From: a virus | Length of the DNA: 39,848 nucleotides | Strand: one strand, 5' to 3' | Virus record (IMG/VR): IMGVR_UViG_3300035365_000038 | Location: 1-39,848 of that record | In this document: piece by piece, positions 5,983 to 38,218 of the stretch | How positions within the stretch are numbered: the first letter of the stretch is position 1 | Layout: each line of letters opens with the position of its first letter | Translations under genes and position numbers: made by a program | Notes under the pieces: generated by a model | The model's input: only the letters and a program-made list of their open reading frames with translations | Database searches by the model: none | What the model was told of the DNA's origin: nothing

Positions 5983-7440
5983 CCTACCGACCAGGGGCCG
6001 GAAAGGATAAGACAGCGTAAGTTACGGCTTGCGCTGTCAGCATTTAAATTAGAATATAAGAAAGAGTATCACAAAAATCCAAGAAAGATAACGCCGAAGC
6101 AGTTAGAGCAGCTTAAGGCGAACATAGAAGAGCTGGGAGACTTATCCGGAATAGTTCACGATCTTAACACAGACGAAATTATAGCCGGAAACCAGCGAAG
6201 CAAGGTTATAGACATAGCCAAGTGCGAAATAGTAATAACAGAGAAGTTTGACACCCCAACGCCGCAGGGAACTGTAGCCTGGGGATATGTTATTTTTGAG
6301 GGGCAGAAGCTTAATTATCGCCAAGTAAGATGGGACGACCGACAGCGGGAGAAAGCAAACATAACGGCCAACGCTTTAGGCGGTGATTGGGACTACCAAA
6401 TTCTAAAATCAGAATTTAGACTAACCGATTTAAGTAATTGGGGCCTTGATACAATAGAAAAAGAATTAAAAGAAGAAGTTACAAGAAAAGAAATCCAAGA
6501 GGATAAATTCAAGATTTGCCAAACGATAAAGACAGATATAAAAGAGGGAGATTTATTTCAAATTGGGGAGCATAGATTAATCTGCGGAGACAGTAAAAAA
6601 ATAGAGGTCTATCAAAATTTACTTAATGGGGAAAAGGTGGATTTAATAATAACTGACCCACCCTATAACGTAGATTATGGAGAAAAGAACCGAGCATTAA
6701 ATAAAAATCTTGACGGTGGAAGATTTAGTAATCCTTATGATATAAAAAATGATTGCATGAAAAGCAATGAATTTTATGATTTCTTGAATAAGGTATTTAC
6801 TAATTTGCATTGTTTTATATCTGATAAATGCCCGTTATATGTTTTTTATGGGCATGTGGAGACTTTAAACTTTTATCATAGCATAGAAGATGCCGGATTT
6901 TGCATAAAACAAATGCTGGTATGGGTCAAAGAACATTTTGTAATAGGTAGGCAAGACTACCAGTGGAAGCATGAGCCTATAATATACGGGTGGAGTAAAA
7001 ATGGGAAACCGCATTATTTTTGTGGCGAAAGGAATCACACTACAGTAATAGACAATTCAGAGGATTTACGAAAAAGAAGTAAACCCCAACTTATAGCGCT
7101 TATTAAGGAGATGATGAACAACACAAAAAGTGATGTTATTTATTGCAATAAGCCACAAGCAAGCAGCGAGCACCCCACAATGAAACCCGTTAAGTTATTT
7201 GGGGAGCTTATACAAAATAGTTCCATCGAAAACGATATAGTAATAGATGCTTTTGGTGGTAGTGGTACAACGCTTATGGCGTGCGAGCAGCTAAAAAGAA
7301 AAGCCCGATTAATAGAGCTTGATCCGGTTTTTTGTCAAGTTATTATAGACCGAATAAGACAATTTAATCCAGGCATAAAGATTATCAAAATTAAAAATAT
7401 ATACGAAGGAAGCAAGAAAAATGAGGATTCAGAGGATTAA
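5983..7440 (+). CDS. ParB-like N-terminal domain fused to a beta-class DPPY (N6-adenine type) DNA methyltransferase; translation start unresolved
   Basis: HKNPRKITPKQLEQL...IIAGNQR is a ParB-like fold. IITDPPYNV is motif IV, and VIDAFGGSGTTLMACEQL is motif I placed C-terminally. The frame is open from 5983, but the first ATG/GTG/TTG is the GTG at 6637. Confidence 0.75.
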   Translation, partial: PTDQGPERIRQRKLRLALSAFKLEYKKEYHKNPRKITPKQLEQLKANIEELGDLSGIVHDLNTDEIIAGNQRSKVIDIAKCEIVITEKFDTPTPQGTVAWGYVIFEGQKLNYRQVRWDDRQREKANITANALGGDWDYQILKSEFRLTDLSNWGLDTIEKELKEEVTRKEIQEDKFKICQTIKTDIKEGDLFQIGEHRLICGDSKKIEVYQNLLNGEKVDLIITDPPYNVDYGEKNRALNKNLDGGRFSNPYDIKNDCMKSNEFYDFLNKVFTNLHCFISDKCPLYVFYGHVETLNFYHSIEDAGFCIKQMLVWVKEHFVIGRQDYQWKHEPIIYGWSKNGKPHYFCGERNHTTVIDNSEDLRKRSKPQLIALIKEMMNNTKSDVIYCNKPQASSEHPTMKPVKLFGELIQNSSIENDIVIDAFGGSGTTLMACEQLKRKARLIELDPVFCQVIIDRIRQFNPGIKIIKIKNIYEGSKKNEDSED

Positions 7441-9074: not shown

Positions 9075-10249
9075 AGTTGACGAAGGTATGCAGGAAAAAT
9101 ATTGAAGCATGGCTTGGAGGTGCAAGACTCATTGCAAATAAGGGGGGTACGCGAAGTGGAAAAACGTACTCCCTGATTTCGTTTTTTGTCTCTCTCTGCG
9201 TCACCAATAGCAACAAGAGGGTTATCGATGTCGTGTCGGAGTCAATGCCTCACCTGAAGCGAGGAGCATTGAATGACATGGAAGAGATCCTCGACAACGA
9301 ACATCTGAAGGAAGGAGTCCATTACGAATACAACCGATCTGACAAGGTGTTCACATTCAAGGGAGGCAGTTCAATGCGCTTCTATTCCGCGGATGATTGG
9401 GGTAAGGTTAAGGGACCGGGCAGAGATATCCTCTTCATCAATGAGTGCAACCGCATTTCATATGAGGTCTATCGCCAGTTGGCGGTAAGAACAAGGCAGG
9501 TCATCTTCTTAGACTGGAATCCGGACGCAGAATTCTGGTATGAGCAGAGAGGACTCAACCTTAAGGACAACACTGTCGAGATTCATTCTACGTACAAGGA
9601 CAATCCGTTTCTATCGGATGTACAGATCGCGGAAATCGAAAGCAACAAGGATGACGAGAACTGGTGGAAGGTGTATGGTCTTGGTCAGGTCGGAAGACCG
9701 CAGGGTGTAATCTTCACCCGATGGCAGCAATGCCGGGATGTGCCGGAAGGAGCAAAACTTATTGGCCGTGGCCTTGACTTCGGATTCACCAATGATCCTA
9801 CAACCATCATTGATGTCTACTTGCAGGATGGTAAGCTGTGGCTAGAAGAGCGGTGTTGGCAGGTAGGTATGACCAACGATATGATCGCATCCGAGCTGCG
9901 CGGTCTTCCGGGGTGGACGGTGGCCGATTGCGCAGAGCCGAAGTCTATTGCCGAGGTCAGAAATTATGGAGTGAGGAATATTGAGCCTTCCGAAAAGGGA
10001 GCTGACTCCGTCCGCGCAGGTATCCAAGTCATGCAGCGTTATGAGATAATGATCACTCAGCGGTCGCTCAACTTGATCAAGGAATTCCGCAACTACAAGT
10101 GGAAGGAGGACCGTATCACCGGAGAGCAACTGAAGGAGCCAATAGACAAGTTCAATCATGGCATCGATGCAGTGCGCTACGTATGCTTGAGCAAGCTGTC
10201 TGAGAAGCCTACAATAAAACGGCCAACAGTAAAAATGAAGAGAAGATGA
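9071..10249 (+). CDS. terL: terminase large subunit (PBSX/Terminase_3-like)
   Basis: Walker A GGTRSGKT, Walker B ILFINE, and nuclease motifs GLDFGFTNDPT and KFNHGIDAVRY. Confidence 0.92.
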   Translation: MKLTKVCRKNIEAWLGGARLIANKGGTRSGKTYSLISFFVSLCVTNSNKRVIDVVSESMPHLKRGALNDMEEILDNEHLKEGVHYEYNRSDKVFTFKGGSSMRFYSADDWGKVKGPGRDILFINECNRISYEVYRQLAVRTRQVIFLDWNPDAEFWYEQRGLNLKDNTVEIHSTYKDNPFLSDVQIAEIESNKDDENWWKVYGLGQVGRPQGVIFTRWQQCRDVPEGAKLIGRGLDFGFTNDPTTIIDVYLQDGKLWLEERCWQVGMTNDMIASELRGLPGWTVADCAEPKSIAEVRNYGVRNIEPSEKGADSVRAGIQVMQRYEIMITQRSLNLIKEFRNYKWKEDRITGEQLKEPIDKFNHGIDAVRYVCLSKLSEKPTIKRPTVKMKRR

Positions 10250-19274: not shown

Positions 19275-20342
19275 ATGACTTGGGAACAATTAACAGATTT
19301 GACAAAAGACAACGGTGCGATTAAAGACCTGAAGGATCTTTTGACCATTGAACTTTTTACTGATCCGGCTTTAGAGCAGTTCTTTACACTGGTATTGAAC
19401 GCAAAGAACGGAGAGAAACTCGGATGGATAGGCAATATGTCCGATGTGGGTTGGGCAGGTGCCGGATGTAACCCTTCATACAAGAAGCCGAAGGTTGATT
19501 TCTTGGAAAAGACTTGGGAAATCGGCGACTGGCAGGTGCCTTTGGAATTGTGCTACAAGGACATTGAAAACACCATCGCAGAATACTGTTTGAAAACCGG
19601 AACTGAGATCGGAGACTTGACAGGTACCGACTATATGGACGTAGTTATCTATCCGGCCTTGAAGGAAGCAATGATGAAGATGGTTTGGCGTTTCATCTGG
19701 TTCGGAGACAAGAATGCAGAACTGAGCAACAACAGCGGTGTTATCTCTACTACTTCGGACGTTGAGCTGTTCAAGACTTGTGACGGTTTATTCAAACGTC
19801 TGTTTGCCATTGGAACCGCAAATGAAAGCCAGAAGGTGACTATTGATGCCAACAAACAAACTACAACCGCCTTGCAGATGAGCAAGATTAAAGATGCAGG
19901 TGTAGCAATCGGTATCTTCGATTCATTGTTGGAAAATGCAGACTCACGTATTGCAGGTATGGACGGTGCCGGAATCTTCGCAACAAAATCTTTGTGTGAT
20001 GCGCTGACAAAAGACTTGAAGCGTGAATACAAGGAAATTTTGGAGTGGGAGGACATCTTCGGAGGTCTGAGAGTGACAGAATACAACAATGTTCCTGTTT
20101 ACTCTATCGGCATCTGGGACCGCTTCATTAAGGAATATCAAAATAACGGTACAAAACTGAATCTTCCTCACCGTGCGGTATTCGGTTCATCTAAAGAGCT
20201 GTTGGTGGGTACTCCGGCTAACCAGATTATTTCTGAGTTGGATATCTTCTTCCAGAGAAAAGAGAGAACAAACAACATATATTCAACTGGTAAACTGGGA
20301 ACTTTGGTCGGTCAGGATGACTTGTTCCAGCTTGCATATTAA
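19275..20342 (+). CDS. major capsid protein (putative, HK97-fold class)
   Basis: 355 aa, immediately downstream of the protease/scaffold and preceded by GGGAGGAAAGTAAT. No direct motif proof. Confidence 0.65.
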   Translation: MTWEQLTDLTKDNGAIKDLKDLLTIELFTDPALEQFFTLVLNAKNGEKLGWIGNMSDVGWAGAGCNPSYKKPKVDFLEKTWEIGDWQVPLELCYKDIENTIAEYCLKTGTEIGDLTGTDYMDVVIYPALKEAMMKMVWRFIWFGDKNAELSNNSGVISTTSDVELFKTCDGLFKRLFAIGTANESQKVTIDANKQTTTALQMSKIKDAGVAIGIFDSLLENADSRIAGMDGAGIFATKSLCDALTKDLKREYKEILEWEDIFGGLRVTEYNNVPVYSIGIWDRFIKEYQNNGTKLNLPHRAVFGSSKELLVGTPANQIISELDIFFQRKERTNNIYSTGKLGTLVGQDDLFQLAY

Positions 20343-31971: not shown

Positions 31972-33279
31972 ATGAAAAACGTAGTAAAAGACATGGTAAG
32001 CGTAATGCAGCCAGTAGAACAGGAAGACATGCAAGTAATTAACCCGGAACAGTTGAACGAACTAGGAGCCTATGAGATAGCCCCAGGGATGACGTCTGAA
32101 CAGATACAGGCGGAGTTTTTCAATTCGGACGCCCTTCGGGAGCAGCCGGAACCAGTCTACAGACTAGACAGCAGCGGCCGCCGATATTATTATAACTTCG
32201 ACGAAAACGGGGAACCGCGCTTTTTTGTTAGTGTTACCACGATGATAAAGCAGAATATGCCAACTTCCCCCCAGCTTATAGAATGGATTGCAAAGATGGG
32301 CGTAGAAGAAAGTAAGAGATATGCAGCGGAAAGGGCCAGTTACGGAACATTCATGCACGCACAAATAGCGTCCCTTATTATTAACAGAACATACGACCTG
32401 GACCAGCTTAAGGACGAGTTAAGGACGTATATCGAAAAGGAAAAGTTACCTACCGACTTTATTAATTACGCGGAAGACTTTAAAAAAGATATTTTGGCTT
32501 TTGCACAATTCATGCGGGACGTAGATCTGAAGCCCCTGGCCATAGAACTAGTATTAACACACCCGGAAGACGGATATGCTGGGGCGCTGGATCTAGCCGC
32601 CGAAATAACGATAGAGGAAAAAGGATTTTTCGGCGAAGTGTATAAGACCGGATCCAACGCCGGGAAACCGAAGGAGACAAAGAGACAGATCAGAATAAGA
32701 GGTATAATAGACTTTAAGTCCGGCCGCAAAGGATTTTTCCCGGAGCACGAAGTACAGCTTCACGCATACAAGGAAATGTGGAATATACATTTTCCCGATA
32801 TGCCGATAGACCGAGTATTTAACTGGTCTCCGAAAGATTGGAGGGGAAGTATACCGACCTATAATTTCAAGGATCAGACCGGAAGCCAGGAAGCGTTAAG
32901 ACTACCGTTCATCGTAGGCCAGGCGAAGTTACAGAACGACAGAAAGGATAATACCGTAGTTTTCTGTTCCGGAATTATCAACCTGGACGCCGACGATATG
33001 CTGGAAGGAAACATAACAGAAATGAGATTATCAGAGGTAGTAAAGAAAAGAAAACAAATAGACACTAAAGCGGAAAAAACAAAGTTAGATAATACCCAGG
33101 AGACGCAAGAATTAACGGAAAAGGAAGAAAAGACCAAAAACAGCCGCAAATCGGGCCGAAATGAAGACGAAAAAGCAAAGGCTGGTACAAATACACCATC
33201 GAAAGAAAAAAAGGCCTTAAAAGAGAAAACAGAAAGAAATAAAAAAATAGAAACCCTATTGAATGATGATGATCTATGA
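31972..33279 (+). CDS. PD-(D/E)XK (RecB/YqaJ/Cas4-like) exonuclease with a long K/E-rich tail ending in DDDL
   Basis: ...VSVTTMIK...GTFMHAQI...ELVLTHPEDGYAGALDL...GIIDFKSGRK...QLHAYK gives the D...(D/E)xK...Q-x-x-x-Y layout. Confidence 0.7.
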   Translation: MKNVVKDMVSVMQPVEQEDMQVINPEQLNELGAYEIAPGMTSEQIQAEFFNSDALREQPEPVYRLDSSGRRYYYNFDENGEPRFFVSVTTMIKQNMPTSPQLIEWIAKMGVEESKRYAAERASYGTFMHAQIASLIINRTYDLDQLKDELRTYIEKEKLPTDFINYAEDFKKDILAFAQFMRDVDLKPLAIELVLTHPEDGYAGALDLAAEITIEEKGFFGEVYKTGSNAGKPKETKRQIRIRGIIDFKSGRKGFFPEHEVQLHAYKEMWNIHFPDMPIDRVFNWSPKDWRGSIPTYNFKDQTGSQEALRLPFIVGQAKLQNDRKDNTVVFCSGIINLDADDMLEGNITEMRLSEVVKKRKQIDTKAEKTKLDNTQETQELTEKEEKTKNSRKSGRNEDEKAKAGTNTPSKEKKALKEKTERNKKIETLLNDDDL

Positions 33280-34007
33280 TAAGCGGACGGATTAAAATAA
33301 ACAGACCCGCGGCGGAGCGAGACCACCTGGTTTTGCCCCGCGTGGGATTTATAAAAGTAGGCTATAAGGAAAAAGGCCGTAACGGTAAGGAATACCCCAG
33401 GAGCGTAGATTACTTTATTCCGGACGGAAAGTATGCAGGACTGTTTACCCAGGCTTATGGGGATAAGCCGCAAACTATACAAATTATATTCCCCGATGAT
33501 GATCCGGCCAAAGTTTGCTGCGAGCGTTACGAATACCGGGACGACGAAGGAAGGTTGCTAGCTACTGGAGATGGAGAGAAATTCCAGGTTTGGAACGGTA
33601 AGGAATACCAGGTATTAACGACTAAAGAATTCCCTAACCTTATGCGAGGTATAGAGAAAAAATACCCAAACAGAGCGTATAAGCAAGAAGGGGATGGATG
33701 GAAGATAATACTCACGCTTAATTTTATTATTCCGTGCGTTCGCGGCGTGACCGGAGTATGGCAGTTTTCCACAAAGGGAGCCGCCAGTACAATACCCCAG
33801 ATCCGTGATGTTTTTGATTCGATGCTAGAAAGCCGTGGATTCTGCAAAGGGATAGTTTTTGATTTGAGTGTTAAGTTTGCAACCAGTCAAAAGCCTGGGG
33901 ATAGGAGTAGATACCCGGTTGTTAGTCTTGTGGCTAACGAAAGCGAAGAAAACATTCTTAAGGTGAAGCAAGCATTTAAACCTAGCAATTTGCTGGAAAA
34001 AAAATAA
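33276..34007 (+). CDS. Gp3-like 'recombination directionality factor-like' family protein
   Basis: LPRVGFIKVGYK...YPRSVDYF...AYGDKPQTIQIIFP...GVWQFSTKGAASTIPQIRD...GIVFDLSVKF resembles the phiC31 gp3-type family as I recall it. 243 aa. Confidence 0.5.
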   Translation: MISGRIKINRPAAERDHLVLPRVGFIKVGYKEKGRNGKEYPRSVDYFIPDGKYAGLFTQAYGDKPQTIQIIFPDDDPAKVCCERYEYRDDEGRLLATGDGEKFQVWNGKEYQVLTTKEFPNLMRGIEKKYPNRAYKQEGDGWKIILTLNFIIPCVRGVTGVWQFSTKGAASTIPQIRDVFDSMLESRGFCKGIVFDLSVKFATSQKPGDRSRYPVVSLVANESEENILKVKQAFKPSNLLEKK

Positions 34008-37984: not shown

Positions 37985-38024
37985 GGGTCCTTTGGGTAGG
38001 ACTAGCCCACGGCGGTGGGCGCAT

Positions 38025-38175
38025 GGTATCGTGACGGAACAGGAAAGACGTCGCATGAAAACTAAGGGACTTTTACTCCCGAAACCGAAGGTAAACGTAA
38101 AGTCGTATTGTAGGTTTCAAAAGCTCATGTAGTGTGGCTATAGACGCAATGCAGGTTCGAATCCTGCCGATACCA
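38025..38175 (+). ncRNA. tRNA-like structured RNA (acceptor stem plus canonical T arm with a large internal insert); not a canonical tRNA
   Basis: GGTATCG (38025-38031) pairs with CGATACC (38168-38174). The T arm GCAGG-TTCGAAT-CCTGC (38151-38167) abuts the 3' acceptor strand, and the discriminator is A38175. No ORF lies in 37985-38218. Confidence 0.45.
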
Positions 38176-38187
38176 CATTATTAACCA

Positions 38188-38218
38188 GCCTGGGGAACCA
38201 GGCATAAACCTAAAGAAT
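38188..38218 (+). promoter_or_regulatory. intercistronic hairpin cassette, copy c
   Basis: TAACCA-GCCTGG-ggaa-CCAGGC-ATAAACCTAAAGAAT-ATG. Confidence 0.5.

Follow-up and report, generated by a model that had tools for sequence, protein, structure and literature searches.

The genome of a gut Bacteroidales phage held in IMG/VR (record IMGVR_UViG_3300035365_000038; positions 1 to 39,848, the whole of which is referred to here as the window) carries, in a 234-nt gap between two genes, the T arm of a transfer RNA (tRNA) followed by an acceptor strand whose perfect partner lies 136 nt away. The question raised by this locus is what kind of gene it holds. A first interpretation, made from the letters alone (the sequence-only reading), had described a one-off tRNA module split by an insert. 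The segment was found instead to be an intact tRNA-like gene of 151 nt (38025-38175, + strand), and it is one class of a large, widespread and conserved family in which a shared tRNA-Leu-type frame, with a full tRNA-Leu-like core, surrounds unrelated bodies of 40–130 nt. The element is structured, conserved with covariation, modular in build and present in different genomic contexts, and it is not a decoding tRNA, a transfer-messenger RNA (tmRNA), a YrlA RNA, an intron-bearing tRNA or a relic of an attachment (att) site. In what follows, chassis denotes the conserved outer part and payload the variable inner one.

Architecture and conservation of the element

The architecture of a class II tRNA is complete in the element, except that the 7-nt anticodon loop has been exchanged for 66 nt (Table 1). 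The D arm, an equivalent of the anticodon stem and a variable-arm-like hairpin are all present, so that the part foreign to a tRNA is 66 nt and not the 136 nt earlier taken for an insert. The T arm, continuing directly into CGATACC and A, was present as first described, and the acceptor stem formed by the distant ends pairs at 7/7 positions. GGTATCG is the sole 7/7 partner of CGATACC within 450 nt upstream, as had been claimed, with a 6/7 alternative, CGTATTG, at 38104; the chance expectation of a perfect 7-nt partner in 300 random nt is ~0.011, and the exact T-loop motif has a single occurrence in the whole window. The D-like stem GACG/CGTC recognised at the outset is part of the D arm, and position 3:70 is U-A (38027/38172). 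The unconstrained minimum free energy fold of 38020-38180 joins the distant ends (-45.9 kcal/mol, z = -2.5), and a fold constrained to the cloverleaf lies only 1.2 kcal/mol above it. The decisive evidence for the element is, however, comparative, and not that of folding or chance statistics.

Homologues with the same body form class C, a set of 10 distinct sequences, the window copy included, recovered by one metagenome scan and one viral scan; two more pattern scans gave coding look-alikes only. Besides the window copy the class comprises several members in phages resembling Bacteroides phage BS-TP2 (BS-TP2-like phages) and two, L315 and L316, in contigs of ~177-179 kb with a different chassis (AATATTG/CAATATT). 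These homologues span three unrelated phage backbones, every helix is kept, and the mean column identity in the body is 94%. In the 10-sequence alignment 97.2% of the cells are paired in the proposed structure, against 25–43% in slid controls, and 13 pairs have changes on both sides, a number reached in 0 of 500 shuffles. Three of these double changes fall among the seven pairs of the acceptor stem, supporting the long-range pairing of 38025-31 with 38168-74 for which covariation in relatives had been proposed as the test. The D stem and the T stem have one each, the helix 38053-58/38125-30 and the Lys-like hairpin two each, and the outer helix 38081-86/38113-18 three; the last is in the tertiary elbow pair G19-C56, which becomes A19-U56 in L315. 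Pair 10:25 of the D stem is A-U in the window copy and L316, G-C in L315 and G.A in the seven further aligned sequences.

Variants in the helix 38053-58/38125-30 beyond its two double changes are all compatible with G.U pairing. This helix had been drawn longer by the sequence-only reading, as 38048-58/38125-35; only the portion given here covaries, and 38049-52 belongs to the D stem. The hairpin GGGA-CTTTTAC-TCCC and the helix GAAACC/GGTTTC, both seen at the outset, are present and covary: the stem of the former also occurs as GAGA/UCUC and AGGA/UCCU, and no pair of the latter is broken within class C. RNAalifold returned the same helices independently, plus the hairpin 38133-36/38145-48, the third pair of which is seen as U.G, U-A and C-G. 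Four single-stranded stretches are invariant, namely AAACUAA, CUUUUA, the 27-nt interior of the second hairpin and GCUAUAGA. Paired changes together with invariant single strands are the pattern of a functional structured RNA, and the claim that the interior is structured is borne out by the covariation of its helices in class C.

Positions 38064-38092 match part of a phage tRNA-Lys(UUU), from its anticodon arm through the variable loop to the start of the T stem, at 90% identity, and on account of this identity the Lys-like hairpin probably descends from a tRNA-Lys fragment. In its loop the first six bases, CUUUUA, do not change and the seventh is C or A. The anticodon-like form attributed to this loop is therefore conserved, but the arm is too long to decode and the loop may pair with AAAAG at 38119-23. 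L316 has its copy within an array of 14 tRNA genes, where tRNA-Ile and tRNA-Asp, encoded on the same strand, flank it. The same ~179-kb gut phage contig encodes a full-length tmRNA near this array (9604-10153, - strand; RF00023, 76.2 bits).

Table 1 Features of the tRNA-like gene and its upstream hairpin, in window coordinates.
Feature	Position	Strand	Remark
GC hairpin GCCCAC-GGCG-GTGGGC	38005..38020	+	ends 4 nt 5' of element start
Whole tRNA-like gene	38025..38175	+	CCA not encoded; next bases CAT
Acceptor stem, 5' strand GGTATCG	38025..38031	+	7/7 pairing with 38168-74
U8 and D arm	38032..38052	+	stem 38033-36 / 38049-52 (GACG/CGTC)
D-arm bases	A14 A15 at 38038-39; G18 G19 at 38042-43	+	
Helix at anticodon-stem position, 5' strand GCATGA	38053..38058	+	6 bp with 38125-38130
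Insert (payload), 66 nt, replacing 7-nt anticodon loop	38059..38124	+	two hairpins
Lys-like hairpin GGGA-CUUUUAC-UCCC	38066..38080	+	resembles tRNA-Lys(UUU) anticodon arm
Second hairpin	38081..38118	+	outer helix GAAACC/GGUUUC, 38081-86 / 38113-18
Second hairpin, inner pairs	38090-92 / 38107-09 and 38095-97 / 38104-06	+	never vary, so covariation is silent
AAAAG, possible pseudoknot partner of CUUUU at 38070-74	38119..38123	+	both strands invariant; putative pairing
Helix at anticodon-stem position, 3' strand TCATGT	38125..38130	+	
Variable-arm-like hairpin	38133..38148	+	UGUG 38133-36 with CGCA 38145-48; loop GCUAUAGA
U48, Levitt-pair partner of A15	38150	+	
T arm GCAGG-UUCGAAU-CCUGC	38151..38167	+	
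Acceptor stem, 3' strand CGAUACC (38168-74), and discriminator A73 (38175)	38168..38175	+	

A family on a leucine-type chassis

The 3' 29 nt of the element match exactly in Bacteroides phage BS-TP2 and in one faecal phage scaffold. The BS-TP2 counterpart is an unannotated element of 108 nt at 19550-19657 of PQ571275.1, GGTATCG-TG-GCGGAATTGGTAGACGC ... GCAGGTTCGAATCCTGC-CGATACC-A, which has the same acceptor stem and T arm together with a textbook leucine-type D arm; canonical phage tRNA-Leu genes have a similar D arm, and that of the window copy is homologous to the Leu-type D arm TGGCGGAATTGGTAGACGC of its relatives. The 3' 25-mer was found exactly in 66 IMG/VR loci and, when the window and two GenBank loci are included, occurs 69 times in 69 sequences, with GGTATCG upstream in 67. 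The segment between the D and T arms of these 69 sequences falls into unrelated classes, at least seven bodies occurring in one identical frame. Elements on the GGTATCG frame with a total length of 108 nt are the commonest (54 loci); class C measures 151/152 nt, a different body of 152/154 nt is present in 5 loci, and lengths of 104, 111 and 120 nt were found in 1 locus each, as were 73 and 74 nt. The two shortest forms (L014 3674-3747, - strand, and L029 5878-5950) have 8-nt or 6-nt anticodon loops and were reported by ARAGORN as tRNA-??? with a 4-nt (ggtt) or 2-nt anticodon.

Family members are characterised by any 7-bp acceptor stem, U8, a Leu-type D arm with GG, U48, the T loop GGTTCGAATCC and a discriminator A, all of which the window copy shows. 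IMG/VR was scanned for the D-arm motif TGGCGGAA followed 66–127 nt later by GGTTCGAATCC, a distance too long for a normal tRNA. Pairing was not filtered, and the register set the 7 nt before the D-arm motif against the 7 nt starting 3 nt after the T-loop motif. Among the matches listed, a 7/7 acceptor stem was present in this register in 171 of 228 distinct matches, compared with 9 of 1140 in shifted registers, and at least 81 different stem combinations occur. Again among the matches listed, the discriminator is A in 152 of 178 family members and the base 5' of the T stem is T, giving the A15:U48 Levitt pair, in 172 of 178; the latter position, which lay outside the search pattern, is T in 63 of the 67 GGTATCG frames as well. 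The stem AGTCAGG/CCTGACT is very common in uncultured viral contigs. Acceptor stems contain 30 G.U against 2 A.C oppositions among the matches listed, and selection therefore acts on the + strand RNA.

At least 310 elements were counted in the 274 loci examined. A single locus may hold up to 7 copies (L270), with 5 each in L080 and L261, which have the same or a near-identical acceptor stem and different bodies; in these loci, all of them checked, the elements sit among ordinary tRNA genes on the same strand. Relatives pass the Rfam tRNA threshold as tRNAs with a long insert, the BS-TP2 element at 40.1 bits and the 154-nt allele at 35.6 bits.

Besides class C, another payload class is also conserved with covariation, which shows that selection acts on payloads. 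In class A, the commonest sister allele, a loop-tail helix reads GAGCUUU/AAAGCUC and becomes UUGUAAU/AUUACAG in L085, as read from the sequences; its analogue in class C would be the potential pairing of CUUUU at 38070-74 with AAAAG at 38119-23. A single fold common to all bodies was considered and rejected, the folds being heterogeneous.

Other departures from ordinary tRNAs were met during the survey. Members such as L130, L077, L115, L287, L210, L258 and others have an extra GC-rich hairpin in the D loop, for example GGCGGAA-GGTTAGGGATGTCCCTGACG-TGGTAGACGC, and their anticodon region is replaced as well. Contigs of BS-TP2-like phages contain further aberrant tRNA-like genes (L019 7284-7348 and 11902-11972, both - strand; L018 1668-1762 and 3047-3116; L032 7580-7656, - strand), among them a 65-nt form without an anticodon arm, forms with 'anticodon' loops of 3, 4 or 10 nt, and one of 95 nt in which a class I frame has an enlarged anticodon region. 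These phages seem repeatedly to carry look-alikes of tRNAs that do not decode. An uncultured Bacteroides contig that carries the 154-nt allele also has a canonical-looking suppressor tRNA with anticodon TTA, reading UAA (L071 1756-1829). The genes annotated as 'tRNA-OTHER' or 'tRNA-Und' in Vibrio phage 1.285.O (MG592655.1; L355 205-277) and in three related phages, ~73 nt long, share the T arm and have an unpaired anticodon region; they are built on a different frame and were placed outside the family.

Genomic setting and acquisition

The window element lies in a same-strand (rightward) operon, between small upstream genes and an SMC/SbcC-like gene. Four cultured relatives (Alistipes AS73P1, Parabacteroides PDS1, Bacteroides BKO1-3 and C1_85S2P) have in common with the window the order Holliday-junction resolvase, small open reading frames (ORFs) and SMC/SbcC-like ATPase. 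In these the gap at the locus measures 42 nt, against 234 nt in the window, and homology resumes at ~38179, 3 nt past the tRNA-like 3' end. The hairpin 38005-38020 has a counterpart in BS-TP2-like phages, GCCCG-GAAAGA-CGGGC, with one compensatory pair, and in nearly all contexts a hairpin ends about 1–10 nt (mostly 3–5) upstream of the element; it is probably a leader, or the 3' hairpin of the upstream mRNA, that travels with the element. The short gap of the relatives, the resumption of homology at the 3' end and the covarying hairpin counterpart point to the element and the 38005-20 hairpin as one acquired module. In BS-TP2-like phages the same frame appears in mosaic combinations of upstream and downstream flanks, and four body classes were found between one identical flank pair, after a DUF2303 gene and before ninG.

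Two further hairpins border the locus. Just upstream of the SMC/SbcC-like gene, GCCTGG-GGAA-CCAGGC (38188-38203) shows compensatory changes (GCCGGGGG/CCCCGGC) in all four relatives and predates the tRNA-like insertion; as no T-run follows, it is probably a 5'-untranslated-region or processing hairpin rather than a terminator. On the other side, GTCCT-TTGGGT-AGGAC (37987-38002) directly follows the stop of an 87-aa ORF and is terminator-like on the minus strand; no counterpart of it was found in the relatives. Both hairpins that had been reported upstream of the module therefore exist, at 37987-38002 and 38005-38020. The accompanying statement that the gap holds no ORF needs amendment, since a mechanical ORF of 46 aa starting with TTG spans 37992-38132; it is nevertheless not conservable as an ORF, because its start and first ~10 codons fall in the 5' flank, which differs among relatives. 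Elsewhere in the window, the ORFs 33276-34007, 1493-1972 and 6637-7440 include one for a Gp3-like recombination directionality factor-like protein (PF18897, 116 bits), and the same set encodes an HNH endonuclease and a DNA methyltransferase.

Function and relation to known RNAs

The element probably, though far from certainly, specifies a non-decoding, stable, tRNA-shaped RNA that is matured by RNase P and the CCA enzyme, is possibly leucylated, presents its insert as a payload and may have a role in phage–host conflict. Its chassis would derive from a class II leucine tRNA and fold into the elbow and top half of a tRNA. Promoter and terminator scans were negative for the window copy, whether for a sigma-70 promoter, a Bacteroides TAnnTTTG (-7) motif or a + strand terminator, and because no promoter motif lies upstream the element is probably co-transcribed with the upstream genes. 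RNase P would excise the RNA from this rightward polycistronic transcript by cutting between 38024 and 38025, the 3' end would be trimmed after 38175 and CCA added, and the resulting RNA of ~154 nt would be stabilised as a tRNA would be. Leucyl-tRNA synthetase (LeuRS) would probably charge it, because the chassis keeps the whole anticodon-independent leucine identity set. The E. coli enzyme needs no more than A73, A15-U48 and G18G19 and can do without the anticodon and variable arms (PMC9976931), and the chassis retains A73, A15:U48, G18G19 and A14/U8, which makes leucylation plausible by analogy. The RNA would read no codon, since the two-hairpin domain of 66 nt replaces the anticodon loop, and this domain would be the functional payload. 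As unrelated payloads occur as alternative alleles and in multi-copy arrays, and as phages that are otherwise alike swap bodies, the partner of the payload is probably one that changes fast; the most plausible candidates are defences or factors of the host that are directed at tRNA or bind other RNA. The leading guess is that the RNA acts as a decoy or sponge in phage–host conflict, and for class C the target could, speculatively, be something that recognises the anticodon arm of tRNA-Lys(UUU). A role as substrate of RNase P and the CCA enzyme and one as decoy had both been suggested by the sequence-only reading, and the element may have either.

A bolder form of the proposal, to be taken as tentative and rather doubtful, makes the leucine-accepting chassis a modular platform on which phages of Bacteroidota, and many uncultured phages from aquatic habitats, display swappable structured payloads in the place of the anticodon arm. 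The tRNA machinery of the host would mature, stabilise and perhaps charge these RNAs, and recombination within the conserved halves of the chassis would exchange the payloads in the course of an arms race against host immunity or rival phages. Here the payload would be a mimic of the tRNA-Lys(UUU) anticodon arm that blocks or soaks up a tRNA-Lys-directed nuclease.

Several observations weigh against the proposed function. In E-value mode the window copy scored 22.2 bits with the Rfam tRNA model (RF00005), below the gathering score of 29; its D loop, AACAGGAAAGA, deviates from the family consensus, and the D stem contains a G.A mismatch in 8 sibling sequences. The leucine identity rules were worked out in E. 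coli and Aquifex and not in Bacteroidales, and no tRNA-related partner enzyme was found among the 40 ORFs scanned in the window. Hairpins resembling an anticodon loop are not clearly enriched across the family (38 of 175, with 28 ± 5 expected from shuffles), and tRNA-anticodon decoy therefore cannot be the general function of the family. An antisense regulator, considered as another trans-acting role, was rejected as no complementarity longer than 11 nt exists within the window. Processing, stability, charging and the conflict role are inferred.

The simplest rival is that the element serves only in cis as punctuation, RNase P or RNase Z cutting the operon between the small genes and the SMC/SbcC-like gene, flanking hairpins protecting the new ends and the interior having no function. 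The same-strand setting without a promoter motif, the hairpins just upstream (38005-20) and downstream (38188-38203) and interiors that differ wholly between alleles would all suit such a device. It is nonetheless unlikely, since the interiors are conserved class by class across unrelated phages, with compensatory changes and invariant loops, many copies stand side by side in tRNA arrays and not between mRNAs, and the downstream hairpin is ancestral, being present in relatives that have no element. The conserved leucine identity features A73 and A15:U48 would also be unexplained, as RNase P cleavage is not known to require either. That the locus is a relic, whether a decaying tRNA pseudogene or an att fragment with a chance 5' partner, or else a DNA-level site, might be supposed from the rejection of the element by default tRNA finders and from the frequent use of tRNA 3' ends as integration sites. 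This idea is barely credible and largely refuted: conservation extends to both halves, the D arm and U48, each helix shows compensatory changes, the G.U tolerance is strand-specific, three unrelated backbones carry the element, and no integrase was found among the window ORFs scanned. The suggestion that only the 3' end might match a host tRNA gene gave a negative outcome, the 3' 22-mer being present in 2 of 185,579 species genomes; one of these, a Prevotella metagenome-assembled genome, shares the 5' flank of BS-TP2-like phages and is clearly phage-like, and the second has a different 5' flank.

The remaining rivals would make the RNA a participant in translation. ARAGORN in default mode gave 0 genes in the window and Rfam at gathering thresholds 0 hits, so that the check first recommended came out blank in these modes; with introns allowed, ARAGORN called 38025-38176 as one tRNA-shaped unit, a tRNA-Val(aac) with a 61-nt intron. 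A real decoding tRNA could be argued from this call, from the presence of every canonical arm except the loop, and from the invariant CUUUUA with its U33/A37 form. The modelled loop, however, has no U33, and across the family the calls scatter over 22 identities and leave 64 of 180 elements uncalled; with anticodons so scattered the calls appear forced, and the intron model was rejected as evidence of splicing. The introns known from bacterial tRNAs are of the group I type and measure at least some 200 nt. The insert is only 66 nt, no intron family in Rfam matched the window element, and a tRNA containing a group I intron was discarded accordingly. The Lys-like hairpin, moreover, stands on a 6-bp stem and a three-way junction, in an arm about twice the normal length, and most family members have no anticodon-like loop, which leaves a decoding tRNA highly improbable. 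The sub-threshold Rfam tRNA hit spans 38104-38175 and takes the internal CGTATTG as 5' strand, a register rejected because covariation favours 38025-31. A miniature tmRNA-like rescue RNA, charged with leucine and tagging from 38081-38113 (ETEGKRKVVL-stop), is very improbable, although the short frame noted there exists, all 10 homologues have a frame of 10 codons plus stop (TAG or TAA), most starting with GCA, the order of stem, possible pseudoknot and frame is that of a tmRNA, and the chassis is chargeable in principle. Against it, ARAGORN in tmRNA mode and the Rfam tmRNA models were negative on the window even at E < 5, while the same tools do detect the tmRNA of L316, a class C phage thus already provided with a full-size one. 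All changes in the frame (xxEGKRKVVL-stop) preserve the helix, including TAG to TAA paired with C to U, the other 27 nt are invariant at all codon positions, and no frame of class A contains a stop triplet. Together with U-A at 3:70 and a normal D stem, these results leave the likeness to helix P2 of tmRNA that had been drawn unsupported, and confirm the earlier judgement that the element is neither a normal tRNA, having no 7-nt anticodon loop, nor a standard tmRNA.

A non-decoding tRNA-shaped RNA, as favoured here, can be compared with several known systems. To class II tRNA-Leu (RF00005) it is linked by the acceptor, D and T arms, by U8, A14, A15:U48, G18G19 and A73, by a D arm near-identical to that of canonical phage tRNA-Leu genes and by relatives above the Rfam threshold; it differs in having a structured 66-nt insert and a window copy below that threshold. 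With tmRNA it has in common a tRNA-like top half joined by a helix to a structured, possibly pseudoknotted interior with a short frame, and charging that would be independent of an anticodon, but it measures 151 nt against ~350 nt, has U3-A70 in place of G3.U70 and keeps a full D stem. YrlA is likewise a non-coding RNA whose T- and D-arm mimicry is recognised by tRNA enzymes, one member being cut by RNase P and receiving CCA (PMC4201824). The ends of YrlA, however, form a Ro60-binding stem, and a Ro60/TROVE gene is located no more than 4 kb from the YrlA gene; in the element the ends make up an acceptor stem, no Ro60 gene was seen and Rfam gave no hit, and the YrlA or Y RNA identity was rejected. 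On reading, the YrlA motif GNCGAAN0-1G was not seen in the element, and no TROVE-type protein was found among the 40 ORFs scanned with PHROGs (10 also with Pfam).

The closest classical analogue, although not homologous, is the species 1 RNA of phage T4 (rnaC, 139 nt). It too is phage-encoded, adjoins tRNA genes, measures ~140 nt and has no anticodon arm, and its canonical T arm GGGTTCGAATCCC leads into a 3' strand able to pair with the start of the RNA. It differs in sequence, no T4 match having been returned by the sequence searches, in having no Leu-type D arm, in an acceptor pairing of 5/7 by eye, in a score of 17.5 bits against the tRNA-clan model, and in not being known as a chassis with interchangeable bodies. 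To our knowledge, tRNA-like stable phage RNAs have been known since T4 species 1 in the 1970s and a function was never found for them. In two further systems a tRNA frame has foreign RNA matured and stabilised by the tRNA machinery of the host. These are the engineered tRNA scaffold, where, as here, the cargo replaces the anticodon arm, and the tRNA-microRNA-encoded RNAs (TMERs) of murine gammaherpesvirus 68 (MHV68), which are eukaryotic, are driven by RNA polymerase III and have their microRNA cargo 3' of the tRNA. Neither is homologous to the element, and the scaffold is artificial.

The literature covered, which lay outside subscription journals, gave no account of a family that combines a Leu-type chassis with interchangeable bodies, and the phage RNA family is apparently undescribed, though of a known kind, the tRNA-like non-coding RNAs of phages and bacteria. 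Default tRNA finders and current annotation miss it, the copy in cultured BS-TP2 being unannotated. The family shows that tRNA-like phage RNAs can be a large modular one, with a conserved leucine-type frame and a variable interior conserved class by class, of which one phage may carry as many as seven copies and a single locus may hold alternative alleles, with transfer between unrelated gut phages. BS-TP2 and its host Bacteroides salyersiae BG8 provide a cultured system for it. If the frame indeed recruits RNase P, the CCA enzyme and LeuRS, the engineered tRNA scaffold would have its equivalent in nature, and the family would represent a new class of phage–host interaction RNA.

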